IMG/VR virus record: IMGVR_UViG_2529292759_000002
Location: 1 to 40,408 of that record
Reading direction: 5' to 3' (one strand)
Length of the DNA stretch: 40,408 nt
Origin: a virus
Taxonomy: Duplodnaviria > Heunggongvirae > Uroviricota > Caudoviricetes
Below, piece after piece: positions 4,505-34,530 of this stretch; position 1 is the first letter of the stretch; each line of letters starts with the position of its first letter. Position numbers and translations under genes: made by a program. The notes under the pieces are model-generated. The model saw nothing but the letters and a program-made list of their open reading frames with translations, ran no database searches and was not told the DNA's origin.

Positions 4505-5404
4505 TTACTTCATTCTGAAGACGCGTTGTGTCGTTGTTGTTTTGAATTTTTCGAATAACTCAGGGTGTACTGACTGGAATAGCTTCTGGTCGAATCTGTT
4601 GCTGATCTGAGATTTCCATGTGCAGAGCGGCTTTCCGTCCAGGGTCAGGACTGAGTGCTCTTGCATGTACATCTTCAGCTTCTCTTCTGATATAGCTATT
4701 TCTTCTTCCAGTGATTTTCTGCGTGACTTCATGTCTCGTAGATCGTTGAATAGTGCGAGTGCCTTTCCGTCAGCCTCGATACTTGTCCCGGCATCTTTCT
4801 CAAACATCAGCGATACATCGCTTACGCTGGTAGCTTCCGGCGGGTTAAGATTTTTCACTCGGTCCCAGAAAGCGATTTCTTTTTCTAAGATCGCCTGGAT
4901 AGTTTCTTCATCACGCTCAACCCGATAGATTCGGAAGTCGTCGCCACCGATAAGCACACCGAAAACGCATACCTGTTTGTTTGTAACCATCAACCCGTGC
5001 ATGGCCTGGGCCGTGTAATGCACAGGAATTGCATCTGTCTGGATTTCTCCCCATTCTTTGGCTTTGAACGGACTAACTGTTTTGATCTCAATGTTCTCGC
5101 CTGACGCTGCTTCTGCATCGATCTCAGCTGCAATAAAATCATAATCACGGTGGATATAGCGGTTTCCGCGATGAACGATTTCCATCCCTGTTTCCTCAGA
5201 AAGCAGGTCTATTACGTATGGCTCCATACGCTGGCCACGCGTGAAAACTTTCTGCTTGCTTGGGTCTACTGGTTTGACACGTGGCTGGACCTTATCCAGA
5301 TAAACCTCAAGCGGGGTGCGCCATGGGCTAATTCCAAGAATCCCTGCAACATCGCTTCCTCCGATGTATTTTGTTCTATCCATGATTCCAGCGTTCCGCA
5401 TCAT
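4505..5404 (-). CDS. YqaJ-type viral recombinase exonuclease (partner of RecT)
   Basis: 299 aa; YIGGSD..GILG and TRGQ..EP motifs typical of YqaJ/lambda-exo-like nucleases; immediately upstream of recT with ATGA overlap to the preceding gene. Confidence 0.8.
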   Translation of the reverse strand: MMRNAGIMDRTKYIGGSDVAGILGISPWRTPLEVYLDKVQPRVKPVDPSKQKVFTRGQRMEPYVIDLLSEETGMEIVHRGNRYIHRDYDFIAAEIDAEAASGENIEIKTVSPFKAKEWGEIQTDAIPVHYTAQAMHGLMVTNKQVCVFGVLIGGDDFRIYRVERDEETIQAILEKEIAFWDRVKNLNPPEATSVSDVSLMFEKDAGTSIEADGKALALFNDLRDMKSRRKSLEEEIAISEEKLKMYMQEHSVLTLDGKPLCTWKSQISNRFDQKLFQSVHPELFEKFKTTTTQRVFRMK

Positions 5405-5700
5405 GCCGCGTCCCTCTGCCCATCAAGCTGATCCGCCAGATCCCAGCGCGCTATAATTGCCATTGCCTCGCGCCGGTAGGCATCCATCAGTTCTTCGAAC
5501 TCAGGGCTGTCTTTAGCAGCCTCCAGCACTTCCTGACGAACGCCTTTGCCTGTTACAACGTCGAAAGTTGAGGACAGTTGATGAAGTCGGATGCTCTCAA
5601 TCAGTTCAACTTGTCGGTCATATAGCTGTTCTGACAGGCGGTAGTCCTTGTCGAATGCCAGCATGATTTTTTGAAGATTTTTCTGCTGATTAACGTTCAT
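5401..5700 (-). CDS. Hypothetical early protein (Gam/Abc-like position upstream of the recombination genes)
   Basis: About 100 aa from MNVNQQ; translationally coupled to flanking genes; function not recognisable. Confidence 0.5.
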   Translation of the reverse strand: MNVNQQKNLQKIMLAFDKDYRLSEQLYDRQVELIESIRLHQLSSTFDVVTGKGVRQEVLEAAKDSPEFEELMDAYRREAMAIIARWDLADQLDGQRDAA

Positions 5701-5702
5701 TA

Positions 5703-5855
5703 TCAGCCCTCCCATATCTCGTTATCGTTGGCTACATCGCGAGCTTCTTTGCTGACGAAAGCCCACTTAATGCCTTCCTGTAAGGTGCGGAACTTCCAGC
5801 TCATGAATCCGCATGCAGTAACGCAGTACCAACCGTTGATGATTTTCCACTGCAT
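5703..5855 (-). CDS. Small ORF, first gene of the leftward early operon (about 50 aa)
   Basis: Not in the ORF track (<60 aa); ATG at 5855 with GAGGT Shine-Dalgarno 6-10 nt upstream; stop abuts the next start. Confidence 0.4.
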   Translation of the reverse strand: MQWKIINGWYCVTACGFMSWKFRTLQEGIKWAFVSKEARDVANDNEIWEG

Positions 5856-5874
5856 AACTTGTTACCTCGGTCTG

Positions 5875-5951
5875 TTACCGTTGAGGTAATAATTATGCTT
5901 ATTTGGTTTGGTGTCAATAGATATGAGTTAAAAAAATTACCCGCAAGGTAA
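5875..5951 (-). promoter_or_regulatory. OL-like region: two 15-bp palindromes (TTACCGTTGAGGTAA 5875-5889; TTACCCGCAAGGTAA 5937-5951) flanking a candidate leftward promoter
   Basis: Palindromes 62 bp apart; minus-strand TTGACA at about 5922-5927 with a TAATTA/ATAATT -10 candidate about 16 bp downstream. Confidence 0.55.
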
Positions 5952-5960
5952 TCTATCTGG

Positions 5961-5986
5961 CAATAAAAAAGCCGCCATGAGGCGGC
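5961..5986 (-). terminator. Intrinsic terminator downstream of the repressor gene
   Basis: Minus-strand GCCGCC-TCAT-GGCGGC hairpin followed by TTTTTTATT. Confidence 0.7.
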
Positions 5987-6008
5987 TTACTTACTGAAAA
6001 CTATAGTT

Positions 6009-6593
6009 TTATTGTTTGTTTTTTTCGTTCTGGTTGATGACAAATTCAATGTAACTTTCGATCTTTGCTTTCTCGGTTTCGGGTAACAATGCGTAGCGTG
6101 AGCGGTCATAGTTGATAGTCGCAGGGTCGTGCGGGTGAATCAGTAGTTCATATCCGTGACGCCCGAATGCGGATGCAACATTCTCCAGGGTGGAAATGGA
6201 AACGCTGACCTCATTGTTTAACAGGCGGCTGATTGTCACCTGGGCGACGCCGGATGCGCGGTGAAGTTTTCCCTGTGTTGAAAGGTCGCGGCTTTCGCTC
6301 ATCCAGCGTTCCAGGTTGTGAGCCGCCAGCTGACCTATATCGCTCGGGCCGACAGGCTGAAAACCCTCCTGAGAAAGCGAACGATCAATATCAAGCCAGT
6401 TACGGGGTTTATTGGCGGCAGCTTCAATTTTTCGTGCAACCTGGTCGCCGATAACCTTCTTGCCAAGAGCCCAGCGGTTTACCAGATTTGCCTGAGTTCC
6501 AAGTTTTTCTGCCATCCGCGTCTGAACACCATTGAATTCACGGTCGATCAAGTCGTTGAGATTTTGCCTGCGGACGTCCTGGATACTTTTCAT
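6009..6593 (-). CDS. Prophage repressor candidate: tandem HTH (XRE-like) protein with no recognisable S24 autopeptidase domain
   Basis: 194 aa; two HTH-like segments (QTRMAEKLGTQANLVNRWALG and ASGVAQVTISRLLNNEV); divergent from the Cro-like gene with operator-like palindromes between; no GxSM...K signature. Confidence 0.7.
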   Translation of the reverse strand: MKSIQDVRRQNLNDLIDREFNGVQTRMAEKLGTQANLVNRWALGKKVIGDQVARKIEAAANKPRNWLDIDRSLSQEGFQPVGPSDIGQLAAHNLERWMSESRDLSTQGKLHRASGVAQVTISRLLNNEVSVSISTLENVASAFGRHGYELLIHPHDPATINYDRSRYALLPETEKAKIESYIEFVINQNEKNKQ

Positions 6594-6648
6594 TTTCTGG
6601 AAAATCGCCTCATATATGAATCAGTAGATGATTCAATTTAAAGCAATA

Positions 6649-6711
6649 TTACCCAACAGGTAAATGCACCTCATAGGTAACTATCCTTGATTTTTGTTAC
6701 CTTATGGGTGA
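6649..6711. promoter_or_regulatory. OR-like region: three 15-bp palindromic sites between the repressor and Cro-like genes
   Basis: TTACCCAACAGGTAA (6649-6663), GCACCTCATAGGTAA (6666-6680), TTACCTTATGGGTGA (6697-6711); triple arrangement resembles a lambdoid OR. Confidence 0.6.
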
Positions 6712-6747
6712 ATATTTATTATCTGAAATAAATATCAGGCAATAGCT

Positions 6748-6978
6748 ATGAGCGATAACGGACATTTCGATTTCAAAAAGCACTGGCTTGCACTTACTCC
6801 GGATGAGCGTGAAGCCTTCGCACAGGAAGCCGGAACGACGAGTCACTATATCCAGACTCACTTAACAGGTAAGCGCAAAATGCCAGGTAAAGTATTGATG
6901 AATGGGCTTTTTAAAGCCTGTAAAACAAGACAATGGTTGCGCTCAAAAGCAGAACTGGCATACTTCTTCTACTCATGA
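6748..6978 (+). CDS. Cro-like small DNA-binding protein
   Basis: 76 aa, basic; divergent from the repressor across the operator region; AGCTATG start context. Confidence 0.55.
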   Translation: MSDNGHFDFKKHWLALTPDEREAFAQEAGTTSHYIQTHLTGKRKMPGKVLMNGLFKACKTRQWLRSKAELAYFFYS

Positions 6979-7000
6979 TATCCAGCTACACCCCTCTGTA

Positions 7001-7024
7001 GACCGCCACCCGGCGGTCTTTTCA
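7001..7024 (+). terminator. Intrinsic terminator after the Cro-like gene
   Basis: GACCGCC-ACC-CGGCGGTC hairpin followed by TTTTCAT. Confidence 0.5.
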
Positions 7025-7033
7025 TATCTATTC

Positions 7034-7048
7034 GCACCTTAAAGGTAA
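7034..7048. promoter_or_regulatory. 15-bp palindromic site (GCACCTTAAAGGTAA) upstream of the replication operon
   Basis: Same left-half variant (GCACC) as the middle OR site; about 80 bp upstream of the 7129 start. Confidence 0.45.
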
Positions 7049-7128
7049 TAAAAAACCAAATATGGTTGATCTTTTTTTTGTGTCAGCACAAAATAACCGT
7101 AATCCCAATACTAATAACAGGGCTTACC

Positions 7129-7329
7129 ATGGAAATCATTACACGTATTGATGCCGCAAAGCGCGGACTTAAACGCTACTACACCGGAAAACCATGTAAG
7201 CACGGACATGACAGTGAACGCTGGGTTTACAACGGACACTGTGTTGAGTGCACCATGGAATCAAACCGTCGCATCAGGGCAGAGATTAAGCAGATCATGA
7301 TTAATTCCTCCCCACAACACTCAAGCTGA
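7129..7329 (+). CDS. Small Cys/His-rich protein in the cII-equivalent position
   Basis: 66 aa from the internal ATG at 7129; C-x-H-x-H ... C-x2-C pattern (CKHGHDSERWVYNGHCVEC); lies between the Cro-like gene and the O-like gene. Confidence 0.5.
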   Translation: MEIITRIDAAKRGLKRYYTGKPCKHGHDSERWVYNGHCVECTMESNRRIRAEIKQIMINSSPQHSS

Positions 7330-7344
7330 TAGCGGAGATTAATC

Positions 7345-8136
7345 ATGAGCAGACATGCAACAGATTGGGCCTGGGAGACAGATCCAGGTAGCTCGTCATT
7401 AAAGCTCATACTGCTCTCGATGGCTGACAGAGCCGATGAATATAACCTCTGCTACCCCAGCATAGAACGCCTCGTTAAAGACACTTGCCTGAATAAAAAA
7501 ACCGTGCAGGCCGGACTTATATCGCTCATGAAAATGGGGCTTATTTCAGATACCGGGGAGAGAAAGGGAGCGACAAAAAGAGTGCGGGTTTTCTCTCTTA
7601 ATATAACCAAAAACGGGAACATTAAAGGCAACCGAGAGGGGGGCAATGAACCCGAAAACGGTAATGTTACCGAAAACGGGAATATACCCAAAAACGGGAT
7701 GTTGAATGATCCCAAAAACGGGATCCAGAACCAGTCATATAACCAGTCATTTAACCAAGAGAGGGAGAGCAGGACAAAAAACGGGGATTCTGTGCATCAT
7801 GACCCCGGCGCAAACAACGCCGTGATGAATAACTTTGTTCCTCCTAGTGGGCCAGGGCAATTAGGCAAATTTGTCATGCATGAACAATGGCAGCCATCAG
7901 ATGACTTTCTTCGGAAAAGCTCATTGCAGGGGATCTACCTGGACAGTCTGCCAACGGCACAGGAACTTGCAGAGTTCAGAATTTACTGGATGGCTGAGGG
8001 TAAGGCATACCATCAGGCACAGTGGGAGCAGAAGCTGGCAAGGCGGCTGCAGATTAGCAGACAGAAGCAATCAACATTACCTGATAACAACGTTCCGCAC
8101 TGGAACAGCCCTGAAGCATGGGAGGATTTCTTGTGA
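7345..8136 (+). CDS. Replication initiator (O-like) with an internal iteron-encoded linker
   Basis: 263 aa; N-terminal winged-helix-like region; central repeated KNGN/ENGN peptide encoded by the DNA iterons; directly upstream of the P homologue. Confidence 0.65.
   Translation: MSRHATDWAWETDPGSSSLKLILLSMADRADEYNLCYPSIERLVKDTCLNKKTVQAGLISLMKMGLISDTGERKGATKRVRVFSLNITKNGNIKGNREGGNEPENGNVTENGNIPKNGMLNDPKNGIQNQSYNQSFNQERESRTKNGDSVHHDPGANNAVMNNFVPPSGPGQLGKFVMHEQWQPSDDFLRKSSLQGIYLDSLPTAQELAEFRIYWMAEGKAYHQAQWEQKLARRLQISRQKQSTLPDNNVPHWNSPEAWEDFL
7607..7724. repeat. Iteron array (candidate origin of replication) inside the O-like gene
   Basis: Five copies of CC(A/G)AAAACGG(G/T)A(A/T) starting near 7607, 7652, 7670, 7688 and 7712 (three at 18-bp spacing), followed by an AACCAGTCAT direct repeat. 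Confidence 0.65.
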
Positions 8137-8918
8137 ACAACGTTTTTACCGCGATACAAAACCGTGACGGAGAAGCCCTTTCTCGCATGTCAGGTTATGA
8201 GCATCAGTACACCAACAATGACAACGTGGTGAACATGTCAGCAGAGAGGCTTGTTGATGCCCTTTTCAAACAGCTGAAACAACTGTTTCCGGCGGCAGTG
8301 GTAACCAACCTGAAGACGCCAGAGCAGGAAGTTGCTGCAAAACAGCAGTGGATTGCTGCGTTTGCCGAAGGGGGGATCCGAACCCGTGAACAGGTTTCTG
8401 CTGGTATGCGCCACGCCCGCGCCAGTGAGTCTCCGTTCTGGCCGTCGCCAGGGCAATTCATCAAGTGGTGTAAAGACAGCAAGATGGTTCTTGGCGTCAC
8501 CATTGACGATGTGATGGCGGAGTTTCACCGGTACAGCAAGGAAAAAAGTTTATATCCTGGTGGTCCCGAAAGATTCCCGTGGCGACATCCGGTTATGTAC
8601 TGGGTCGTATGTGATACCCGCCGTGCAATGTATCAGCGCCAGCTTAGCGAGATTGAGGTTGAGAAACACGCGCGCAGGCTGCTCGATGATTGGGCGAAAA
8701 AGGTGGCTTCCGGACAGCAGATACCCGATCCGGTGATCAGCATACAGGCAAAGCCAGAACCCATGAGTACACCTCCGGACACAGGGAGAGACGTTTACCA
8801 TCCACCAGGGCGAAGTTTCGGGTGCATGCCTAACGCCGCCACCCTTGGGGGAATAACACCGGCGCAGTGGCTGATGGAGGAATACAGGCGGGGAAAGGCG
8901 GCAGGATTTATCAAGTAA
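8118..8918 (+). CDS. Replication protein P homologue (helicase loader)
   Basis: 266 aa; QWIAAFAEGGIRTREQVSAGMRHARASESPFWPSPGQFIKWC closely parallels recalled lambda P (QWVLAFRENGITTMEQVNAGMRVARRQNRPFLPSPGQFVAWC). Confidence 0.85.
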   Translation: MGGFLVNNVFTAIQNRDGEALSRMSGYEHQYTNNDNVVNMSAERLVDALFKQLKQLFPAAVVTNLKTPEQEVAAKQQWIAAFAEGGIRTREQVSAGMRHARASESPFWPSPGQFIKWCKDSKMVLGVTIDDVMAEFHRYSKEKSLYPGGPERFPWRHPVMYWVVCDTRRAMYQRQLSEIEVEKHARRLLDDWAKKVASGQQIPDPVISIQAKPEPMSTPPDTGRDVYHPPGRSFGCMPNAATLGGITPAQWLMEEYRRGKAAGFIK

Positions 8919-8922
8919 TACC

Positions 8923-8946
8923 AGCGCGATAGCGCATTTTTTTACG
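8923..8946 (+). terminator. Weak intrinsic terminator after the P homologue
   Basis: Short GCGC-GATA-GCGC stem followed by ATTTTTTT. Confidence 0.35.
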
Positions 8947-8955
8947 TCTCGATGA

Positions 8956-9031
8956 TTACCTACTGGGTAATAAAATATTCTAAAATCTATTGATTTAGTG
9001 TCTTATGTGGTTTTTAATTACCTCGGGGGTA
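8956..9031. promoter_or_regulatory. Pair of 15-bp palindromes (TTACCTACTGGGTAA 8956-8970; TTACCTCGGGGGTAA 9017-9031) upstream of the 9036 operon
   Basis: Two perfect sites 61 bp apart; the second overlaps the ribosome-binding region of the 9036 gene. Confidence 0.55.
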
Positions 9032-9035
9032 AATC

Positions 9036-9380
9036 ATGAGAAAACAGATACAGGCTCTTGGTCGACTCAAAACAGGCCAGATGAACAAAACAGAATCTGC
9101 GTATTGCCAGCACCTTGAGCAGCGTAAACGTGCAGGGGAAATCGCCTGGTATCGGTTCGAGGGTATCAAGCTGCGGTTAGCTGATAACACGTTTTATACG
9201 CCAGATTCCGCTGTGATGCTCGCCACCGGCGAGATGGAACTGCACGAAGTGAAAGGTTTCTGGACCGACGACGCCAGGGTGAAAACCAAAGTCGCCGCAG
9301 ATCAGTATCCGTTCCGAATCATCGGGGTAACGGTTAAGCCAAAGAAAGCAGGTGGTGGCTGGAACATCGAAGAGTTCTGA
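9036..9380 (+). CDS. Hypothetical phage protein (possibly DUF1064-like)
   Basis: 114 aa; family assignment from memory only. Confidence 0.5.
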   Translation: MRKQIQALGRLKTGQMNKTESAYCQHLEQRKRAGEIAWYRFEGIKLRLADNTFYTPDSAVMLATGEMELHEVKGFWTDDARVKTKVAADQYPFRIIGVTVKPKKAGGGWNIEEF

Positions 9381-9441
9381 ATCGACGATCTTTTTAGTTA
9401 TCAATGTAATCAATAAGTTATGTGGATAAGCGAGGGTAAAG

Positions 9442-9990
9442 ATGGAAAGTAATATCAAAGGGTTAGTTTCCGCCGGGCATGAGATGGCTTCGGAACTGAA
9501 AGCAGAATGTGGTGCCGTTGATATGCGCAGTGTGGCAAAGCTGATCAGCGATTTGGCAACGCAACTGGAAGTGCAACTGGTGCGTGCTAATGCGCTGGCG
9601 GCGGAGAATGCGGGGCTGAAACATGCAATGGCTGTAACTCTTGAGCATGTGTCGGTCACGGATGCAGGGCAGGCCGGAGTTGCTGCAATGATTATCAACG
9701 ATGCCCTGCACCACAGCGAAACTCCAGCCACCGATGCTTTTCTGGCTGAAATTCGTGCGGAGGCTCGCAACGAGGGGATTAACTATACCGCAAGCCGTCT
9801 TGCTGCTGCTTTCAACCACGGATTTATCAATAAGTCTTTACGTGAAGTTTTCGACGTTACACGCATGATTCTGTCAGCGAAAGAAGAGTTGGCTAATGAA
9901 CCGCACCCGATTGATGGCCTGTCCGGTGAATATGCGGAGAAATCCCTTGAAGAATGGGCGGAACAGCTTCGTAAAGGAGTCATCCAGTGA
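9442..9990 (+). CDS. Hypothetical early protein
   Basis: 182 aa, Ala-rich and helical; 4-bp overlap with the next gene. Confidence 0.5.
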   Translation: MESNIKGLVSAGHEMASELKAECGAVDMRSVAKLISDLATQLEVQLVRANALAAENAGLKHAMAVTLEHVSVTDAGQAGVAAMIINDALHHSETPATDAFLAEIRAEARNEGINYTASRLAAAFNHGFINKSLREVFDVTRMILSAKEELANEPHPIDGLSGEYAEKSLEEWAEQLRKGVIQ

Positions 9991-10430
9991 GCAAGATTGA
10001 CTATCAGGCACTGCGTGAGGCGGCAGAGAAAGCAACGTGTGGCGAGTGGTCGCTCGAATATGGAGATGGCCGATTTGATGGTGATGATGCACTAATTCAT
10101 CGTGAAGTTGCTGGATATATTCCCATTTGCAGAATTGAAGGAGCGCATCCAGAAAGCCGTTTCTATGAAGATTTCCAAATGGAGCAGCAGGCCAATGCTG
10201 AATTCATCGCCGCAGCCAATCCAGCTACCGTGCTGGCACTGCTGGATGAACTGGAAGCAGCAAAAAAGCGCATTGCAGAACTGGAAGCGCGGGAAATACT
10301 GCTCCCGGAACGTAGCAGCATGCTTCATCGAACAGATTTTCACGATGATTACCAAACGGTAATGGCATACAAAGTTTCTGAAGTCATCGATGCAATCCGC
10401 GCTACTGGCATTCGCATCAAAGGAGAGTGA
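9987..10430 (+). CDS. Ead/Ea22-like family protein (tentative)
   Basis: 147 aa; REAAEKATCGEW and AANPATVLALLDELEAAKKRIAELE resemble Ea22-like proteins as recalled. Confidence 0.5.
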   Translation: MSKIDYQALREAAEKATCGEWSLEYGDGRFDGDDALIHREVAGYIPICRIEGAHPESRFYEDFQMEQQANAEFIAAANPATVLALLDELEAAKKRIAELEAREILLPERSSMLHRTDFHDDYQTVMAYKVSEVIDAIRATGIRIKGE

Positions 10431-10431
10431 G

Positions 10432-11187
10432 ATGATTCACTACCACGGTGGGCCTATTACTCCTGATACGTGCGCAATGAGAGCATGGAAAGGGCGACAT
10501 GCGTTTATCAGTTTTGCGCATTCAGGCCAGATCAATCTCGCGGCTGAATACTGTCAGTCGTTCGCGCTGGACAACGGTGCATTCACCGCCTGGAAAGCAG
10601 CTGGCAAAAACAAAATCGACTGGAGCGATTACTACGAGTTTGTTGCTCGCTGGAAGAATCACCCAGGATTCGATTTTGCCATTATCCCGGATGTTATTGA
10701 TGGCGGAGAGGAGGAAAATGATGCGCTTCTGAATGAGTGGCCTCACGGAAAACTAGCTGGCGTTCCAGTGTGGCACATGAATGAAAGTGACGAGCGATTT
10801 ATTCATTTGTGCAATGAGTTTCCGCGAGTGGCTATCGGTAGTTGTGGCGACTATGACGTAAAGCGCCCAACTCTTGCGGTAGCCAGAATGAAAGACCTGA
10901 TTCGTCACATTGTTGATGGGCATGGTCAGCCGGTTACGAAACTACATGGATTGCGCATGTTAAATCCGCTGATATTCACAAAATTACCCTTAGCCAGCGC
11001 AGATAGTACGAACGTCGCTCGAAACATCGGTATTGATAAAGCCTGGTCTGGGGCTTATGCACCTGCAAGTAAAGAGACACGCGCAGCATTAATGGTAGAA
11101 CGGATTGAGGCACACAATAGCCCTGGTTCTCTTGCGTATTGTGAACAACGCGACCGCTTTGAAATGCAATTGCAACTAGCAGTTTAA
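10432..11187 (+). CDS. Hypothetical enzyme-like protein of unknown function (252 aa)
   Basis: Start at the internal ATG (MIHYHGGP...) 1 nt after the previous stop; acidic Asp/Glu-rich segments; no confident family. Confidence 0.5.
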   Translation: MIHYHGGPITPDTCAMRAWKGRHAFISFAHSGQINLAAEYCQSFALDNGAFTAWKAAGKNKIDWSDYYEFVARWKNHPGFDFAIIPDVIDGGEEENDALLNEWPHGKLAGVPVWHMNESDERFIHLCNEFPRVAIGSCGDYDVKRPTLAVARMKDLIRHIVDGHGQPVTKLHGLRMLNPLIFTKLPLASADSTNVARNIGIDKAWSGAYAPASKETRAALMVERIEAHNSPGSLAYCEQRDRFEMQLQLAV

Positions 11188-11197
11188 GGACTAACAA

Positions 11198-11566
11198 ATG
11201 ACCACTATTACCAAAGAACGTATTGAATTGTTCATTAAAAATCCGCTTGAAAACGGGCTTACTCGTGGCGAACAAATGGAACTGGCACGAATTGCACTGG
11301 CATCACTGGGAGCAGAACCTGTAAGCCAAACTTACAAGTTGAACGAGCTGTCGGGCAACTATCCGGTAACTCCGGATGGTTGGATAAGCTGTAGTGAGCG
11401 AATGCCCGCTCAAGATGATTGGATTTTAATTTATTCAAAGCACGGCGAGTATATGGCAGGACAGGTACAAGGGGAATACGTGGAGTTGAGCGACGGCACT
11501 TTATCGTGGTTAGGGAACGCCTTGTACTGGATGCCTCTACCGGAACCGCCGCAGGAGGTTAATTGA
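11198..11566 (+). CDS. DUF551-like phage protein
   Basis: 122 aa; C-terminal pattern W...ERMP...W...LYWMPLPEPP resembles DUF551 proteins. Confidence 0.5.
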   Translation: MTTITKERIELFIKNPLENGLTRGEQMELARIALASLGAEPVSQTYKLNELSGNYPVTPDGWISCSERMPAQDDWILIYSKHGEYMAGQVQGEYVELSDGTLSWLGNALYWMPLPEPPQEVN

Positions 11567-11850
11567 TGGTCTCCTTCGCGAAATATACGATTATTGACTG
11601 GATAGCATTCATTCAGGTTTTGCTCATCTGGTTTTATATGGCTTACAGGAGTGGACAGTGGATTGTCAGTGTAGCCTGTAGCAATGGATGGCGTTGGTGG
11701 AACCGAAAGAATAAAAAAGCGCTGGCCTTGGCTTCGTTTTACGAAGCATTCAATCTTAACAGTCTTCAGCCTGGTTTTGTCGTTGTAGTCACCACTCAAA
11801 GCGGCATGACGATACAAATTCACAAGCCAAAGGAGGAAGGTCGTGGCTAA
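11563..11850 (+). CDS. Hypothetical small protein with a hydrophobic N-terminus
   Basis: 95 aa; 4-bp overlap with the upstream gene. Confidence 0.4.
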   Translation: MMVSFAKYTIIDWIAFIQVLLIWFYMAYRSGQWIVSVACSNGWRWWNRKNKKALALASFYEAFNLNSLQPGFVVVVTTQSGMTIQIHKPKEEGRG

Positions 11851-12124
11851 CCTGCAACTTGCCGTTAAAGGTGAATACTTCGATGCCATGATTCGCGGAG
11901 AGAAAACGGAAGAGTATCGCCTGTGTAATGACTACTGGAATAAGCGAATTATGTTCCGGGAGTATGACCGCCTGATTATCACAAAGGGATATCCGAAGCG
12001 CGACGATTCCAGCCGTAGAATTGATGTTCCGTATGACGGATATGAAATAAAGACAATCACACATCCCCACTTCGGCGATAAACCGGTAAAGGTGTACGCG
12101 ATAAAGGTGAATATTGATGGCTAA
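11843..12124 (+). CDS. Hypothetical small protein (possibly ASCH/PUA-like fold)
   Basis: 93 aa; overlaps both neighbours, consistent with an operon. Confidence 0.45.
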   Translation: MANLQLAVKGEYFDAMIRGEKTEEYRLCNDYWNKRIMFREYDRLIITKGYPKRDDSSRRIDVPYDGYEIKTITHPHFGDKPVKVYAIKVNIDG

Positions 12125-12455
12125 ATCAGCAGCAGAGCGCAAAGCCGCTCAGAGAGCCAGACAAGCTGCATCTGGTGTGCGTAAGCTGGAAATTGTGCTT
12201 GATGCTCAGGAAATTGAAATGCTGGAGCGTAACTGTGCCACGCGTCGCCCCGGGCGTGCGCCTTACGAATTTGGTGAGTATATAGCGTTACTGATCCGCC
12301 AGGATGATGCACGCGTGCGCGGGCGTATAAAATCGATCAGCAAAAAATGTTGCGGTAAGTGCGGCGAGAGAGTTCCAGTTAATTCATGCCCGTGTAATGG
12401 TGACTCGCAATGCTGGGTGACTAAAGGCTGGCATGAAACGAAATTAATAGTGTGA
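12114..12455 (+). CDS. Cys-rich small protein immediately upstream of a terminator and the terminase genes; candidate late-gene regulator
   Basis: 113 aa; basic N-terminus; C-terminal cluster KKCCGKCGERVPVNSCPCNGDSQC; position analogous to a Q-type regulator (inference). Confidence 0.45.
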   Translation: MMAKSAAERKAAQRARQAASGVRKLEIVLDAQEIEMLERNCATRRPGRAPYEFGEYIALLIRQDDARVRGRIKSISKKCCGKCGERVPVNSCPCNGDSQCWVTKGWHETKLIV

Positions 12456-12504
12456 CATGTCACGAGTAGATTATGCATGATGAATTTGATGGGGTTTGAA
12501 TACT

Positions 12505-12530
12505 GCCGCCAACTATGGCGGCTTTATTTT
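12505..12530 (+). terminator. Strong intrinsic terminator between the early block and the terminase genes
   Basis: GCCGCC-AACTAT-GGCGGC hairpin followed by TTTATTTT. Confidence 0.7.
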
Positions 12531-12541
12531 GCATGGTACTA

Positions 12542-12574
12542 TTACCACAACGGTAACTATTACCACGGTGGTTA
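12542..12574. promoter_or_regulatory. Tandem 15-bp palindromes directly upstream of the terminase small-subunit start
   Basis: TTACCACAACGGTAA (12542-12556) and TTACCACGGTGGTTA (12560-12574), the second ending at the ATG. Confidence 0.5.
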
Positions 12575-13170
12575 TGATGCCTGCTGAACCTAAAACCTAT
12601 AAACGCAAATCAACGCAATTTAAGCCACTAACAGCAATGCAGGAGGCTTATTGCCAGTCATACATCAAAACGCCTGAAAACCAGACTCAGGCAGCGATTA
12701 ACGCAGGATTCTCCCCAAATACAGCGGCAGTTAAAGCCAGTGTCATGATGCGCGATGAACGCATTCAAAAACGGATTGCCGAGTTGATGGAGGAGCGCAA
12801 CAAACGAATGCGCGTCAGTGCTGATTACGTTCTCATGCGCCTGGTGGAGATCGACCAGATGGACGTGATCGACATCCTCAACGACGATGGGAGCCTTAAA
12901 CCAATCCGTGAGTGGCCGAAAATCTGGCGCACTACGCTTAGTGGCTTTGATCTGTCATCGACCATCATGAACATGAACGAGGATTCGATAGAGACAATCC
13001 TCAAAAAAATTAAATGGCCTGACAAGGTGAAGAACCTTGAGCTGATTGGTAAGCATGTTGATGTCAACGCGTTCAAAGAACGTCTGGATGTTAATGTGAA
13101 TGTGACAATTGCTGATCGCATAGCAGCAGCCAGGAAGCGACTCAAAGAACGTCAGGATGGTAATCAGTGA
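12574..13170 (+). CDS. Terminase small subunit
   Basis: Start at the internal ATG (MMPAEPKTYKRK...); about 198 aa; directly precedes the large subunit with 4-bp overlap. Confidence 0.7.
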   Translation: MMPAEPKTYKRKSTQFKPLTAMQEAYCQSYIKTPENQTQAAINAGFSPNTAAVKASVMMRDERIQKRIAELMEERNKRMRVSADYVLMRLVEIDQMDVIDILNDDGSLKPIREWPKIWRTTLSGFDLSSTIMNMNEDSIETILKKIKWPDKVKNLELIGKHVDVNAFKERLDVNVNVTIADRIAAARKRLKERQDGNQ

Positions 13171-14636
13171 CAGATACAGCGTTATCTCCTGAAGAGCAGT
13201 TGATCGAGGATATTGCAGGGTTCACTCACGATCCGCTTGGCTATGCCCTCTATGCGTTCCCGTGGGGGGAAGAGGGTACTGAACTGGCACATGCCACCGG
13301 TCCACGTCAGTGGCAGGCCGATGCGTTCCGAGAGATACGTGATCACCTGCAGAATCCAGAGACGCGCTATCAGCCGCTTATGCTGGCACGCGCTTCTGGT
13401 CACGGTATTGGTAAATCCGCATTCATCTCAATGCTGATCAACTGGGGCATGTCCACTTGCGAGGATTGTAAGGTCGTGGTGACCGCCAACACCGACAACC
13501 AGCTACGAACGAAGACCTGGCCGGAAATTATCAAGTGGTCGAACCTTGCTATCACGAAAGACTGGTTTACCTGTACCGCTACTGCGATGTACAGCAATGA
13601 TCCTGGGCACGACAAGCGGTGGCGAGCTGACGCAATCCCCTGGTCTGAGCACAACACTGAGGCATTCGCCGGACTACACAACGAGCGCAAACGCATCATC
13701 GTGGTATTCGATGAAGCGTCGAACATTGCGGATCTGGTGTGGGAAGTTGCTGAGGGTGCGCTTACGGACGAAGACACTGAGATTATCTGGGTGGCGTTCG
13801 GAAACCCGACGCGTAATACCGGACGTTTCCGTGAATGTTTCCGCAAGTATAAACACCGCTGGAAAACTGCGCAGATTGACAGTCGGACGGTGGAAGGTAC
13901 CAACAAACAGCAGTTGCAGAAATGGGTTGATGACTACGGGGAAGACAGCGACTTCGTTAAAATCCGTGTGCGTGGCATATTCCCTGATGCATCTGAATTG
14001 CAGTTTATCCCTACCGGTCTTACTGACGAGGCAATGAAACGGGTGGTAACCGCTGCGCAGGTTGCACATGCTCCGGTGATAATCGGCGTTGACCCGGCAT
14101 ACTCCGGCGTTGATGACGCTGTGATATACCTGCGGCAGGGGCTACACAGTAAGGTGCTGTGGACTGGCAACAAGACCACTGACGATCTGATAATGGCGAA
14201 GCGTATCGCTGACTTTGAAGACCAGTACCAGGCTGACGCAGTGTTCATCGACTTCGGTTACGGAACTGGTCTGAAGTCAATCGGTGACGGCTGGGGTCGT
14301 ACATGGCAACTTGTTCCGTTTGGTGGCGCGTCTACTGACCCGCAGATGCTCAACAAGCGTGGGGAGATGTTCAACTCATGCAAGACATGGCTGAGGCTGG
14401 GCGGCATGCTTGATGACCAGGAAACAGCGGACGACCTGTCGGCGGCAGAGTACAAAGTTCGAGTGGACGGTAAAATCGTTATCGAACCGAAGGAAGATAT
14501 CAAGGAGCGGCTTGGGCGTTCTCCTGGTAAAGGCGATGCGCTACTGCTGACGTTTGCGTTCCCGGTAGCCAAGAAAACTAATGACCCACGGCAGCAGCAG
14601 GGCAGGGCTATAACAGACTATGACCCATTTGAATGA
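13167..14636 (+). CDS. Terminase large subunit
   Basis: 489 aa; Walker-A-like RASGHGIGKS; VVFDEASNI (Walker B/DExx-like); C-terminal nuclease-like region. Confidence 0.9.
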   Translation: MTDTALSPEEQLIEDIAGFTHDPLGYALYAFPWGEEGTELAHATGPRQWQADAFREIRDHLQNPETRYQPLMLARASGHGIGKSAFISMLINWGMSTCEDCKVVVTANTDNQLRTKTWPEIIKWSNLAITKDWFTCTATAMYSNDPGHDKRWRADAIPWSEHNTEAFAGLHNERKRIIVVFDEASNIADLVWEVAEGALTDEDTEIIWVAFGNPTRNTGRFRECFRKYKHRWKTAQIDSRTVEGTNKQQLQKWVDDYGEDSDFVKIRVRGIFPDASELQFIPTGLTDEAMKRVVTAAQVAHAPVIIGVDPAYSGVDDAVIYLRQGLHSKVLWTGNKTTDDLIMAKRIADFEDQYQADAVFIDFGYGTGLKSIGDGWGRTWQLVPFGGASTDPQMLNKRGEMFNSCKTWLRLGGMLDDQETADDLSAAEYKVRVDGKIVIEPKEDIKERLGRSPGKGDALLLTFAFPVAKKTNDPRQQQGRAITDYDPFE

Positions 14637-14639
14637 TTT

Positions 14640-15488
14640 TTACTTTTGTGTTTTTGATTTTCTTTGATAGGTGGAATTTAAATCACCATTTATATTTACT
14701 AGAGGATTATTCAATAATGTACTGATTTCTGGATTGTTAATTCCAGTAACGCCAAGTTTCTTTACGGACTCATTAAAGTCTTGTAATGATTTTAGACCTA
14801 CAAGCCCATTAGCAATTGTATTATTTGTTGCCAAAGGAATGTTTTTCTTATAGGACTCATATTCGTTTTTTAAATTTTTGTGAGTTTTTTCTAGATTTTC
14901 TAGTTTAGATGTTGTTTCATCAATAACCTTAGATAATTCTAAAATACGAGCTTGTGCTGCGCGCAGTTCTGTCTCCCTCTCTTTCAATTCAGATGTGAGT
15001 TGTCCCATTCTGTCTTTTGAAAGAATTATTTCCTCTTTCATGTCTTGAATGTTTTTTTCAGCGCCTGTTTTTACTTTTTCGTAAGTAATGTCTTTTTTAG
15101 CCAGCAATCTCTGTAGCCGTGTTTCACGTTGTATTTTTCTTGCCTTCCGGTGGTTTTCGATTGAGTCATTATTATCAAGAGGTTTTGCTTGCCATACGTT
15201 AATGATATTGTTTACCCATGGTAATAGGCAGCAGATAGTAATTACAGATAAGCATGGATAAAACATAACAGTTTTCCATGTGCTGTTATCTGAGATGTAT
15301 GAAATTTTATCTATTATATTTGATTTGCTAAAAAACAGATAAAGAAGTGATTTCCAGTTGAAGGCGCACCAGGACATAACAAAAGCACCAAGCACAGGGT
15401 TTTTAGCTCGATGCACGGCAGTATTGGCAGTAGATAAAAACAGCTCTTTGAACGATTCGAACATACTAATTACCTTAAAGTTTTTCAT
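14640..15488 (-). CDS. AT-rich moron: unknown protein with two N-terminal hydrophobic segments and a long coiled-coil region
   Basis: Reverse strand between the terminase and portal genes; markedly AT-rich; start at MKNFKV (15488) or an internal Met at 15464; coiled-coil-like segment ETRLQRLLAKK...ELRAAQARILELSKVIDETTSKLENLEKTHKNLKNE. Confidence 0.6.
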   Translation of the reverse strand: MKNFKVISMFESFKELFLSTANTAVHRAKNPVLGAFVMSWCAFNWKSLLYLFFSKSNIIDKISYISDNSTWKTVMFYPCLSVITICCLLPWVNNIINVWQAKPLDNNDSIENHRKARKIQRETRLQRLLAKKDITYEKVKTGAEKNIQDMKEEIILSKDRMGQLTSELKERETELRAAQARILELSKVIDETTSKLENLEKTHKNLKNEYESYKKNIPLATNNTIANGLVGLKSLQDFNESVKKLGVTGINNPEISTLLNNPLVNINGDLNSTYQRKSKTQK

Positions 15489-15507
15489 GATTATACCTTT
15501 AAGGTAA
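15470..15507. promoter_or_regulatory. Palindromic site (ATACCTTTAAGGTAA 15493-15507) plus half-site (TTACC 15470-15474) at the moron start; a TATAAT hexamer overlaps
   Basis: Minus strand reads TTACCTTAAAGGTATAATCATG; a second ATTACCTTAAAG copy lies 25 bp downstream in the transcript. Confidence 0.5.
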
Positions 15508-15521
15508 TTTGTGGTCATCAG

Positions 15522-15548
15522 GCAAAAAAAATGCCCGGCGAACCGGGC
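15522..15548 (-). terminator. Intrinsic terminator between the tRNA and the moron (minus strand)
   Basis: Minus-strand GCCCGG-TTCG-CCGGGC hairpin followed by TTTTTTTT. Confidence 0.6.
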
Positions 15549-15711
15549 GAACTGGAAGCAATGAGTTATGCCTTCCGTGGCTGTACGGGTTTACAGCATG
15601 AAGTCATCGCAATGGCGTCCTGCTGTAAAAAGGGCGGTGATAGGCCTTCAAGGGAAACCATCACCGCCAAGCCCCTGGAACTTCTGGCATCACGGTCCTC
15701 AGGCGTGATTC

Positions 15712-15788
15712 TGGCGTGGCATGCAGGATTCGAACCTGCGACCAACCGCTTAGAAGGCGGTTGCTCTGTCCAACTGAGCTAATGCCAC
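15712..15788 (-). tRNA. tRNA-Arg (anticodon UCU), argU-like
   Basis: Hand-folded cloverleaf: acceptor GTGGCAT/ATGCCAC, D-stem GCTC/GAGC, anticodon stem ACCGC/GCGGT with loop CTTCTAA, T-arm GCAGG-TTCGAAT-CCTGC, encoded CCA; 77 nt. Confidence 0.85.
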
Positions 15789-16110
15789 AACGCTGAGAGC
15801 ACTTAGCCTGTTAAGGCGCCACACTTTGTCGCGGCTCCATAAATGCTCTCATCGTTGTACCCTCGTCTCTTCCGAGGCGTCACACCGAATCGCCGGGATG
15901 GTGAATCCCCGTGCGCGGAATAAAACCGCTCGACTTGCACATTCCGGCTACCTGGTTCGTTTGCCCGAGCAAGGGAGGGTGCCCCTTAAACGTATCCAGA
16001 CCGCTATCGGCGCATGTGCCATACGCCGTACTGCTCAAAATAAAAGCTCACTCCACCTGTTCAATTTAACGACAAGCCAGTCAGGTTAGTAACCGGAATG
16101 AACTCTTTGG

Positions 16111-16125
16111 TTACCTGAAGGGTAA
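16111..16125. promoter_or_regulatory. 15-bp palindrome (TTACCTGAAGGGTAA) upstream of the structural gene block
   Basis: Perfect site about 90 bp upstream of the 16216 ATG. Confidence 0.45.
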
Positions 16126-16215
16126 TAATTTGTGCGTTAAATGTCAACTATCTACGATAAATAAATCATATGTGGTTAAATTGGTAATAATTTAATTGCG
16201 TACGGAGTCATTGAT

Positions 16216-16422
16216 ATGTGCATGGGTAGCTCACCATCAGTGCCTGCAACACCAGAAGTTCAGGCAGCACCACAGGAGCAGGATGCCGCCGTTGTTGATG
16301 CCCGCGACGAAGAAACACGTCGCCGTCGCGCTGCTGCTGGTCGTAGTTCTACGCTGCTTACCGGTTCTCAGGGCGACACATCAACCGCTAATACCAGCGG
16401 TAAAACACTGCTTGGTCAGTAA
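16216..16422 (+). CDS. Small hypothetical protein preceding the portal gene
   Basis: 68 aa, low complexity (Ala/Gln/Thr-rich); GGAG Shine-Dalgarno about 9 nt upstream. Confidence 0.45.
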   Translation: MCMGSSPSVPATPEVQAAPQEQDAAVVDARDEETRRRRAAAGRSSTLLTGSQGDTSTANTSGKTLLGQ

Positions 16423-16436
16423 CCGGAGTCATTGAA

Positions 16437-18116
16437 ATGGCGGAAACAACTAAAGAGCGATTGAACAAACAGTTCGCACAACTTGAAAGCGAGCGTCAGT
16501 CGTTCGAGTCGCACTGGCGCGAGTTGAGTGATTACATCAACCCGCGTGGTTCCCGCTTTCTGACTTCTGAGGTTAACCGTAACGATCGACGCAATACACG
16601 CATTATTGATTCGACCGGGACTATGGCGGCGCGCACTCTTGCCAGCGGCATGATGTCAGGCATAACAAGCCCCGCCCGTCCGTGGTTTCGCCTGGCTACG
16701 CCAGATCCTGAAATGATGGACTATGGCCCTGTTAAGTTGTGGCTTGAGGCAGTTCAGAACCGCATGAACGATATGTTCAATAAGTCGAATCTCTACCAGT
16801 CCCTTCCGCAGTTATACGGAAGCCTCGGCACATACAGCACTGGTGCAATGGCGGTGCTGGAGGATGACGAGGACATCATTCGCACAATGCCATTCCCGAT
16901 AGGCAGTTACTACCTGGCTAACTCACCTCGTGGCAGTGTGGACACCTGTTTCCGCAAGTTCTCTATGACTGTTCGTCAGCTTGTTCAGGAGTTCGGGCTA
17001 AATAACGTCAGCGAATCCGTAAAAAGCATGTGGGAAAGCGGCACCTACGAGAAGTGGATTGAAGTGATGCATTCGGTTTACCCGAACATTGACCGCGATA
17101 CATCGAAGCTGGATAGCAAGAACAAGCCATTCAAATCGGTTTATTACGAGGTTGGTGGCGATAACGACAAGTTGTTGCGTGAGTCCGGATTCGATGAGTT
17201 TCCAATTATGGCTCCGCGCTGGGAAGTTAACGGCGAAGATGTTTATGGATCATCATGCCCGGGTATGCTGGCGCTTGGATCTGTTAAGGCATTGCAGCTT
17301 CTTCAGAAGCGCAAGTCGCAGTTGATTGATAAAGCCACCAATCCGCCGATGGTTGCTCCGACTTCCCTCAAGAATCAGCGCGCCTCCCTTCTTCCTGGCG
17401 ACATCACGTATATCGATCAGATTACTGGTCAGGATGGCTTCAGGCCTGCTTATCTGGTTAACCCCAGTACAGCAGATTTGGTGGCAGACATTCAGGACAC
17501 TCGTCAAATCATTAACAGCGCCTACTTTGTCGATCTGTTCATGATGTTGCAGAACATCAATACCCGCTCGATGCCTGTTGAAGCGGTGATCGAAATGAAA
17601 GAAGAAAAACTTCTGATGTTGGGGCCGGTTCTGGAGCGTCTGAACGACGAATGTCTTAATCCTCTCATTGACCGCGCTTTCTCGATGATGGTGCGTAAAA
17701 ACATGCTGCCGCCACCGCCTGACGCGATGGAAGGCATGCCCCTGAAGGTCGAATACATTTCCGTCATGGCTCAGGCGCAGAAGTCTATCGGCCTGTCCAG
17801 TCTGGCGTCCACGGTTAACTTCATTGGTCAACTTGCGCAAGCGAAACCAGAAGCTCTCGACAAACTCAACGTTGATCAGGCGATCGATGCATTCGCTGAT
17901 ATGTCCGGAGTGTCTCCAACCGTCATTGTTCCGCAGGAACAGGTTGAGCAGGCTCGCCAGCAACGGGCACAGCAACAACAGCAGCAACAAATGATGGCGA
18001 TGGGGATGGCGGCGGCACAGGGTGCCAAGACGCTAAGCGAAGCTAAAACTTCGGATCCGAGTGTTTTGTCAGCTATGGCGAATGCAGTTAGTGGTCAGGG
18101 TGGGCAATCACAATGA
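16437..18116 (+). CDS. Portal protein
   Basis: 559 aa; follows the terminase block and precedes scaffold and capsid; size and order typical of podovirus portals. Confidence 0.8.
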   Translation: MAETTKERLNKQFAQLESERQSFESHWRELSDYINPRGSRFLTSEVNRNDRRNTRIIDSTGTMAARTLASGMMSGITSPARPWFRLATPDPEMMDYGPVKLWLEAVQNRMNDMFNKSNLYQSLPQLYGSLGTYSTGAMAVLEDDEDIIRTMPFPIGSYYLANSPRGSVDTCFRKFSMTVRQLVQEFGLNNVSESVKSMWESGTYEKWIEVMHSVYPNIDRDTSKLDSKNKPFKSVYYEVGGDNDKLLRESGFDEFPIMAPRWEVNGEDVYGSSCPGMLALGSVKALQLLQKRKSQLIDKATNPPMVAPTSLKNQRASLLPGDITYIDQITGQDGFRPAYLVNPSTADLVADIQDTRQIINSAYFVDLFMMLQNINTRSMPVEAVIEMKEEKLLMLGPVLERLNDECLNPLIDRAFSMMVRKNMLPPPPDAMEGMPLKVEYISVMAQAQKSIGLSSLASTVNFIGQLAQAKPEALDKLNVDQAIDAFADMSGVSPTVIVPQEQVEQARQQRAQQQQQQQMMAMGMAAAQGAKTLSEAKTSDPSVLSAMANAVSGQGGQSQ

Positions 18117-18409
18117 CAGATTACGAAGACGATCAACTGAAAGAAGAAAACGCCCGTAAGCAACGTGACATGGCACAGCGTGAAATTGATGACATTCGCT
18201 TTGTCATGAGCAGTGAACAGGGGCGTCGCGTTGTCTGGTCGGTGCTGGAGAAAGGCCGTGTGTTTTCCGCTATCTCACCGATGGACGCTATGGCAATGGC
18301 ATTTAATGAGGGGCAACGCAATCTGGCGCTGGAACTGTTTCAGCGCGTTATGGCGCATTGCCCTGAACAGTATTTGAAGATGGCCAAAGAGGCCAGTGAA
18401 CAGGAGTGA
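18113..18409 (+). CDS. Hypothetical head-module protein
   Basis: 98 aa; overlaps both neighbours. Confidence 0.45.
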   Translation: MTDYEDDQLKEENARKQRDMAQREIDDIRFVMSSEQGRRVVWSVLEKGRVFSAISPMDAMAMAFNEGQRNLALELFQRVMAHCPEQYLKMAKEASEQE

Positions 18410-19107
18410 TCATGAATTTATTTGAGCGTTTGCTGTATCGCCGTCTTTGCAATGAGCAACCAGTCGATGGTGGAGCAGCTCCTGCTGCGTCAGAACCGTC
18501 AGCGCCTGCAGGTGATAACCCTGCTCCAGTTGGTGATCCATCACAACAGGAAGGTGATAAGCCACAACCTGTTGCTGATGGCGATAAACCTGCTGATGAC
18601 AAAAAGCCTGAAAACGATAAGCAGGATGAAAAAAAGGGCGGCGATAAACCAGAGGGTGCGCCTGAGAAGTACGAGTTTCAGGCTGCCGAAGGCGTAGAGC
18701 TGGATACAGAAGCGTTGAAGGAATTCGAGCCGGTGGCGCGAGAACTAAACCTGACCAACGAGCAAGCGCAAAAGCTGGTTGATGCTTATCCGAAGATTCT
18801 GGCAGGTGTGCAGCAGCGCCAGGCAGAAGCCTGGCAGAAAACAACCGAGCAGTGGGCTGCTGATGTAAAAGCTGACAAAGAAATCGGTGGCGACAAGTTG
18901 ATTTCTAACCTTAGCGCCGCACAGCGTGCGCTTGACCAGTTCGGGACACCTGAACTCAAAGAATATCTGAACACCACCGGGCTGGGTAATCACCCTGATC
19001 TGGTCAAAACGTTCGTGAAAATCGGAAAGGCGATGTCTGAAGATGGCATGGTCACCGGTGGTAATGAAGGCCAGCGTAGTGCGGCCGAAGTGCTCTATGG
19101 CAAATAA
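18406..19107 (+). CDS. Scaffolding protein candidate
   Basis: 233 aa; Pro/Ala/Asp/Lys-rich low-complexity N-terminal half and helical C-terminus; between portal and major capsid. Confidence 0.5.
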   Translation: MIMNLFERLLYRRLCNEQPVDGGAAPAASEPSAPAGDNPAPVGDPSQQEGDKPQPVADGDKPADDKKPENDKQDEKKGGDKPEGAPEKYEFQAAEGVELDTEALKEFEPVARELNLTNEQAQKLVDAYPKILAGVQQRQAEAWQKTTEQWAADVKADKEIGGDKLISNLSAAQRALDQFGTPELKEYLNTTGLGNHPDLVKTFVKIGKAMSEDGMVTGGNEGQRSAAEVLYGK

Positions 19108-19115
19108 GAGAGGAA

Positions 19116-34261: not shown

Positions 34262-34418
34262 AGTGGTTACCTTTTAGTCTGGTTAATCACCACTACCGAC
34301 GCCAATCGGTTGGTGGTGAACTGTGCAGGGTTGGCGTAACCGGCTAAAAGGACCCGGCGCACCTTTCGGTGCCCCCACACAGCCCACCATAATACGAATG
34401 TGGCCGTGCTATACGCAT

Positions 34419-34438
34419 AAAAAAACCGCTTGCGCGGT
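34419..34438 (-). terminator. Intrinsic terminator between the small SOS-box gene and the antirepressor gene
   Basis: Minus-strand ACCGCGCAAGCGGT hairpin followed by TTTTTTT. Confidence 0.55.
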
Positions 34439-34530
34439 GAATGCGCCTTTTAGTAATCCGGGACGCCAATCCCGGCACTGGATTTTGCCAGTGCTCGATT
34501 ACTATGGCACAAGAGGAGTGCGTTGTAAAT

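Follow-up and report, generated by a model that had tools for sequence, protein, structure and literature searches.

A stand-alone DpdA-like transglycosylase gene in the early operon of an Escherichia coli podoviral prophage

What does an early phage gene encode when its product matches no domain family? The open reading frame (ORF) at positions 10432–11187 (+ strand) of IMG/VR record IMGVR_UViG_2529292759_000002 raises this question; the record is a 40,408-nucleotide (nt) stretch of DNA that we analysed whole and refer to as the window. The original prediction had described an early-operon protein of no recognisable family and had offered, as a hypothesis, a TIM-barrel transglycosylase of the DpdA type. 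That hypothesis is supported by a PHROG match, by catalogued orthologues, by alignment to a DpdA1 profile, by the predicted fold and by the catalytic residues, and we conclude with high confidence that the window protein is a homologue of the DpdA-family transglycosylases. It comes from an E. coli prophage and falls among the DpdA-only phages, a group already published in which close relatives are catalogued, and represents a minimal, zinc-less phage DpdA within the tRNA-guanine transglycosylase (TGT) superfamily. The gene and its ribosome-binding site are as follows.

10432..11187, + strand: dpdA-like coding sequence, a stand-alone phage DNA-guanine transglycosylase homologue (251 amino acids plus TAA)
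10421..10425, + strand: Shine-Dalgarno AGGAG, read from the sequence, 6 nt before the dpdA-like ATG

Searches of Pfam, NCBIfam and the PDB sequences with the single window protein gave no match, which is why it looked like an orphan. Pfam had no family at E ≤ 1 for the window protein, and a scan of 51 members of its family returned nothing but noise and likewise no family at E ≤ 1. To that extent the description as a protein without a family was right, but it failed for PHROGs and for the literature. PHROG 887 ('queuine tRNA-ribosyltransferase') matched residues 1–248 (E = 2e-103), and the same PHROG was matched by the DpdAs of phages 9g and CAjan (both validated), 7-11 and MED16. None of these DpdAs has a Pfam match, so the lack of one is normal for a phage DpdA.

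Among relatives found by tblastn, identity to the window protein was 99% for an Stx1a phage, 93% for Salmonella BTP1 and SPN3UB, 68% for Shigella SfI and Vibrio Athena1, 38% for MED16 and 36% for 7-11. BTP1, SPN3UB, SfI, HK106, SEN1 and Athena1 are listed by accession as DpdA-only in Supplementary Data 1 of Hutinet et al. 2019 (PMC6884629), where the DpdA-only phages make up a third group of 76 phages and the 'singleton' DpdAs form a gamma-proteobacterial cluster. The proteins of BTP1 (SIU02687/gp23), SPN3UB (YP_007011024, 93%) and SfI (YP_009147480, 68%) have the same length as the window protein and are identical to these extents over their full length. BTP1 also has the same Ea22-like upstream neighbour, and the DpdA-only phages likewise lack preQ0 genes. 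The cassettes differ in placement: rightward early operon of a BPP-1/Bbp16-type podoviral prophage, probably K1-specific, in the window, leftward 'ea' region both in BTP1 and in an E. coli prophage of lambdoid type.

The link to validated enzymes was made by profile comparison. A family profile of 51 diverse members, 35–55% identical to the window protein, aligned by hhalign to a DpdA1 profile of 24 sequences including 9g and CAjan with a probability of 99.0% and E = 8.8e-18 over 173 columns, and pairwise BLASTP of the window protein against the 9g DpdA gave E = 3e-8. An assignment of the coliphage matches of about 42% identity to Seuratvirus/Nonagvirus was rejected, the DpdAs of 9g and CAjan being just 17–22% identical to the window protein.

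Structure prediction followed by a fold search, the check proposed with the hypothesis, led to the same superfamily. An AlphaFold2 model with 71 homologues as input (predicted local distance difference test score 90, predicted template modelling score 0.87) contains eight beta strands alternating with helices, and thus a TIM barrel, (beta/alpha)8, with the active site at its C-terminal face, as in the TGT superfamily. Its best structural matches in the PDB were Cap10, a bacterial DpdA and TGTs, and Foldseek against the PDB did not discriminate. Foldseek against viral models (BFVD) gave 27 matches at E ≤ 1e-3, and those with names were all phage TGT-like proteins. Proteins of Vibrio nt-1 and Cellulophaga phiST, phages that carry DpdA2 and DpdA3, respectively (PMC10516641), had weaker scores in this set.

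We mapped residues from a six-way alignment and the hhalign alignment, and counted conservation in two sets, the 51 diverse homologues and 71 homologues. For the roles of CAjan residues we follow Kot et al. 2020 (PMC7544227), with further DpdA residue roles from PMC10164549. The codons concerned are:

10570..10584, + strand: D47-N48-G49-A50-F51 (DNGAF), with D47 the predicted general acid/base and F51 predicted to stack on the base
10687..10704, + strand: P86-D87-V88-I89-D90-G91, inside an acidic cluster pointed out earlier
10945..10947, + strand: H172, predicted partner of the nucleophile
10996..11007, + strand: S189-A190-D191-S192, with D191 the predicted catalytic nucleophile

Their conservation and counterparts in validated DpdA1 proteins are:

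D47: invariant in both sets; CAjan D63 (general base), 9g D72
N48: 44/51 and 71/71; CAjan S64
F51: 37/51 (Y in 12) and 70/71; CAjan F67
D87: 50/51 and 71/71; CAjan S102 (Ser in DpdA1)
D90: 28/51 and 55/71, otherwise G or E; CAjan D105 (base recognition), 9g D114
H115: 50/51; CAjan H132
G136: 49/51; CAjan G153
H172: invariant in both sets; CAjan H187, 9g H196
L174: 47/51 and 71/71; CAjan F189
D191: invariant in both sets; CAjan D206 (assigned nucleophile, PMC7544227), 9g D215
S192: invariant; CAjan S207

The window protein thus has the two aspartates typical of the TGT superfamily, the nucleophile near the C-terminus of the barrel (D191) and the acid/base Asp of the D-x-G-x-F/Y motif (D47). Bacterial DpdA cannot exchange guanine without the corresponding residues, Asp95 and Asp256 (PMC10164549). 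F51, H115, G136 and L174 correspond to pocket residues of CAjan. The acidic cluster cited as an example in the original prediction, IIPDVIDGGEEEND, does occur in the protein, at residues 84–97.

Compared with the DpdA1 proteins of 9g and CAjan, which are validated preQ0-DNA transglycosylases, the window protein matches at D47, F51, H115, G136, H172 and D191, and all of them lack a zinc motif and a Pfam match. The 9g and CAjan proteins are 55–66 amino acids longer, are encoded beside folE/queD/queE/queC and modify 25–32% of G. Their base-edge Asp (D114/D105) falls at a position that varies in the clade of the window protein, which keeps D87. Predicted isoelectric points are 6.3 for the window protein, 5.6 for 9g DpdA and 6.3 for CAjan DpdA. 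Bacterial DpdA (S. Montevideo, PDB 7UI4) is more distant, with 14% identity and 413 rather than 251 amino acids; it has insertions Ins1-3 and Ins8 and a zinc site, CXCX2CX22H, and needs DpdB and ATP (PMC10164549). In the window protein there is no CXC motif and hence no CXCX2CX22H, a motif absent from the 9g and CAjan DpdAs too, and none of its cysteines (Cys14, 41, 127, 138 and 237) is conserved in the family alignment, so the zinc subdomain of TGT and bacterial DpdA is missing. No dpd genes were found in the annotation of near-identical prophages by the NCBI Prokaryotic Genome Annotation Pipeline (PGAP), and PADLOC matched the window protein neither to DpdA nor to any other defence-system component.

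The coding sequence starts with the ATG at 10432 and ends with the TAA at 11185–11187; its 252 codons include the stop, which had been counted in the size of 252 amino acids first given, and the product has 251. An in-frame ATG at 10390 would give a product of 265 amino acids. We regard that reading as unlikely and favour 10432 because the homologues begin MIHYHGGP, with M1 conserved in at least 90% and I2, H3, H5, G6 and P8 invariant among the 71 sequences. The start coupling suggested by the original prediction is real, since the upstream Ead/Ea22-like ORF stops (TGA, 10428–10430) 1 nt ahead of the ATG, and its view of the protein as the largest unassigned one in the early-right operon holds for proteins without a Pfam assignment among those scanned. 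No Rfam families or tRNAs were found overlapping 10432–11187, and short antisense ORFs across the gene had no support.

A transglycosylase of this kind needs a base to insert, and we looked for its source in the phage. With FolE, QueD, QueE, QueC, Gat-QueC and YhhQ of 9g/CAjan as tblastn queries, no counterpart was found in the window (best E = 0.3) or, at E ≤ 1e-3, in 80 related IMG/VR loci, each with at most 10 kb of flank and together 1.08 Mb. Because no genes for preQ0 or G+ synthesis are co-encoded, we file the window protein as DpdA-only, and because the phage lacks a preQ0 pathway the base must come from the queuosine pathway of the host. Among 5,426 complete E. coli genomes, 5,425 carry queC, and the host also has tgt. 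Hosts of DpdA-only phages generally hold a full queuosine pathway, and 9g DpdA alone, drawing on the preQ0 that E. coli makes itself, modified 0.03–0.3% of G in plasmid DNA (PMC6884629).

From the observed homology, fold, conserved catalytic residues, absence of pathway genes and presence of host queC, and with reaction steps taken from TGT and DpdA enzymology, we infer a DNA substrate, an inserted base and a benefit as follows. By analogy with characterized enzymes, the window enzyme probably inserts a host-derived 7-deazaguanine into DNA. Once a lysogen is induced or a cell infected, the rightward early operon would express it at an early stage. The enzyme would flip a target deoxyguanosine out of double-stranded DNA and into its pocket, on the C-terminal side of the (beta/alpha)8 barrel, where Asp191, positioned by His172, would attack C1', releasing guanine and forming a covalent enzyme–DNA intermediate. 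A free 7-deazaguanine base from the host pool would bind next, and Asp47 would deprotonate its N9, resolving the intermediate and leaving a 7-deazaguanine nucleotide in the DNA. The base would be drawn from the queuosine pathway of the host (FolE/QueD/QueE/QueC), either preQ0 itself or an intermediate close to it, for example ADG or preQ1. What is expected is a mark that phage DNA carries at low frequency and probably at a specific motif, of the order of 0.02–0.3% of G in related cases, with no bulk replacement, and its most plausible use would be escape from some host nucleases.

The nearest relatives with known DNA chemistry are the DpdAs of 7-11 and MED16, which belong to the same PHROG, share the invariant D, P-D, H and D-S positions and come without pathway genes, although their phages are virulent or of distinct types, unlike the window prophage. 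Salmonella phage 7-11 DNA contains dADG at 50 per 10^6 nt (0.02% of G; PMC6884629), and Pantoea phage MED16 DNA at 354 per 10^6 nt (0.13% of G).

Several observations weigh against reading the protein as a DNA-modifying DpdA. These closest tested relatives are just 36–38% identical to it and show very low modification, and no biochemical test of any BTP1-type subclade member was found in the literature searched. MED16 DNA was not protected from the restriction enzymes tried, and the DpdA-only phage Orion had zero modification, though its host lacks the pathway (PMC6884629). Against PDB sequences the family profile found only spurious GCN4 coiled-coil matches and reached no solved TGT or DpdA. 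The DpdA1 profile found no match there either, which indicates that phage DpdAs are too diverged for profile-to-sequence methods. The top PDB fold match was Cap10, which binds a protein-linked base, 0.7 Z units over DpdA. Lastly, the base-edge Asp of DpdA1 (CAjan D105) aligns to the variable D90, and D87 is conserved instead; the D90-equivalent position of the 7-11 DpdA is Gly. This D87-for-D90 change may be a sign that the base pocket, and with it the substrate, is not that of DpdA1.

This last point, with the complete dependence of the clade on host pools, is the basis of a more specific proposal, which we consider rather unlikely: that the BTP1-type DpdA-only clade, instead of being a weaker version of DpdA1, has shifted in function and inserts another host intermediate (for example ADG or preQ1) at a few specific sites for a purpose different from bulk anti-restriction. 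Insertion of ADG, a QueC-bound intermediate, would match the dADG of 7-11 and MED16. If the proposal were true, the mark could serve as a self-mark or for evasion of one nuclease, or consumption of the precursor could interfere with Dpd, type IV CBASS or QatABCD.

It is improbable that the protein is mainly a guanine-excising DNA glycosylase, or a decayed, near-inactive remnant, the trace 7-deazaguanines of its relatives being side products. In favour of this reading, modification in 7-11 is near the detection limit and the closest relative at whole-prophage level does without the gene. Yet strict conservation extends over the catalytic positions and some 35 further columns among homologues that are 45–94% identical, and the family spans many genera and thousands of sequences, which argues for a selected, intact enzyme; a glycosylase would share the first chemical step with base exchange and differ in outcome alone.

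A role on tRNA, in which the enzyme would alter queuosine-type modification of host or phage tRNA and so tune translation, agrees with the fold and catalytic residues of the TGT superfamily, and with the name 'queuine tRNA-ribosyltransferase' in GenBank and PHROGs. The prophage also carries a tRNA gene (15712–15788, − strand, between the terminase and portal genes), but this is tRNA-Arg with anticodon UCU, not a GUN-anticodon substrate for queuosine. The Pfam match that marks bacterial Tgt (PF01702) was not found for the window protein, and hhalign of the family against one E. coli Tgt sequence (probability 0.5%) detected no relationship. As the Zn-binding subdomain and conserved cysteines are also missing, the host already has tgt and all characterised phage homologues act on DNA, we hold this role to be quite improbable.

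To the same low degree we credit a Cap10-like role on a protein-linked base, or an activity that counters 7-deazaguanine-dependent immunity (type IV CBASS, QatABCD or Dpd) by intercepting or draining 7-deazaguanine intermediates of the host. Cap10 of type IV CBASS (PDB 9NTN) is 10% identical to the window protein and alike in fold only; its operon also encodes Cap9 (QueC-like) and a CD-NTase (N-terminal NDG). Its lead over DpdA in the fold search is small, and its H226/D248 pair, comparable to H172/D191, has an equivalent in the DNA-modifying DpdAs of 9g and CAjan as well. No Cap9/QueC-like partner was found in the window or in the 80 related loci, PADLOC gave no match, and no CD-NTase is named in the PGAP annotations of near-identical prophages; homology at the sequence level favours DpdA1. 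The last alternative, an unrelated TIM barrel such as an aldolase-like metabolic enzyme resembling DpdA by fold convergence, is effectively refuted by the hhalign match to validated DpdA1 with catalytic residues in register, by the shared PHROG and by the exclusively phage TGT-like names among the BFVD fold matches.

As a DpdA homologue, the window protein is one of a large family. At E ≤ 0.001 we found at least 7,855 homologues in a collection of 5.8 billion proteins, with the best 8,000 candidates scored, and clustering at 50% identity gave 813 representatives; the dpdA-like ORF is a real gene, far above chance expectation. Of the 5,426 complete E. coli genomes, 204 (~4%) carry copies that are at least 80% identical, 192 of these copies being at least 99% identical, and PGAP labels the E. 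coli copies 'hypothetical protein'.

The window, about 40 kb long, comprises an entire prophage flanked by guaA and yfgI. This prophage is of podovirus type, with a Bbp16-family cement protein, a T7-gp14-like core protein and an endosialidase tailspike, and in its rightward early operon the dpdA-like gene follows the genes for replication. The features around it are:

6694..6722, + strand: promoter-like site that follows the repressor gene and heads the rightward early operon (consensus scan, weak evidence)
9987..10430, + strand: upstream Ead/Ea22-like gene (Pfam PF13935, E = 1.6e-25), whose C-terminal half moves together with the dpdA cassette
11198..11566, + strand: downstream DUF551 gene (Pfam PF04448, E = 2.9e-11), beginning 10 nt past the dpdA-like stop

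The same consensus scan, itself weak evidence, found no promoter-like or terminator-like site on the + strand between 7019 and 12452, which fits a single rightward early operon. In 23 of the 80 related loci the dpdA relative has an Ea22-like gene upstream, and in 22 of them a DUF551-like gene downstream. BTP1 and a lambdoid E. coli prophage show the same Ea22-like/dpdA/DUF55x order, there in the leftward 'ea' region beside xis/int. The copies of the Ea22-like gene in the window and in the lambdoid E. coli (FORC64) prophage have their C-terminal halves in common and differ in their N-termini, which points to a recombination junction inside this gene and suggests, by sequence comparison, mosaic exchange (compared genes at 9987–10430 in the window, 14592–14999 in locus L001 and 5357–6001 in locus L005). 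The closest whole-prophage relative, in E. coli A0 34/86, is about 97.7% identical over 87% of window positions 5000–20000 but has no dpdA between its Ea22-like pseudogene and DUF551 gene (L002, 17276–18588), and we therefore regard the dpdA unit as a mobile accessory cassette.

No conserved partner protein was found across the contexts compared. A nearby ASCH-domain gene was dropped as a functional partner, being present also in the closest prophage without dpdA, and a small upstream partner like DpdB was rejected, the ORFs that precede the gene in Pseudomonas, Shewanella, MED16 and 7-11 being unrelated. A DNA adenine methyltransferase is the immediate same-strand neighbour in 14 of the 80 related loci (7 Dam, PF05869; 7 MT-A70, PF05063). 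The window prophage itself has a second DNA-modification gene in its leftward early operon, an MT-A70 adenine methyltransferase (2123–2785, − strand; PF05063, E = 4e-22). A Shewanella P2-like prophage encodes a C5 DNA methylase two genes upstream of its dpdA relative. In P. aeruginosa prophages (L009–L012, 4523–7899), a 46%-identical relative has a 406-amino-acid PAPS-reductase-family protein two genes upstream and an SRA/ScoMcrA-like protein downstream. PAPS-reductase-family proteins are PP-loop ATPases, a superfamily that includes QueC, and this arrangement could be a different modification/restriction module built around the same transglycosylase.

Elsewhere in the prophage, a calcineurin-like metallophosphoesterase gene (1467–2246, − strand; PF00149, E = 2e-15) adjoins the integrase gene. 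Rfam matches to C4 antisense RNA (77.7 bits) and isrK (77.9 bits) at 34309–34494 (− strand) stand directly upstream of a BRO-N domain gene (33566–34261, − strand), and together they make up an antirepressor module under antisense control, in the style of P1/P7 but in a prophage of podoviral type. The tailspike (35030–38149, + strand; 1,039 amino acids) has an endosialidase catalytic beta-propeller domain according to the annotation of near-identical prophages, and K1 (polysialic acid) capsules are the probable specificity of the prophage.

Recognition of the gene, which is also present in the BTP1 prophage of invasive Salmonella ST313, as a dpdA homologue corrects the label given to it by the NCBI pipeline. 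The group offers a tractable E. coli system for a question carried through studies of 2019–2023, namely which base DpdA-only phages insert, where it comes from and what use such very low modification has. The shift of the conserved Asp, as seen in the alignments, gives a small lead on the chemistry and purpose of this subgroup. Temperate phages with the gene are candidates for 7-deazaguanine marks in their DNA, and such marks can affect restriction, sensitivity to modification-dependent defence and nanopore base-calling.

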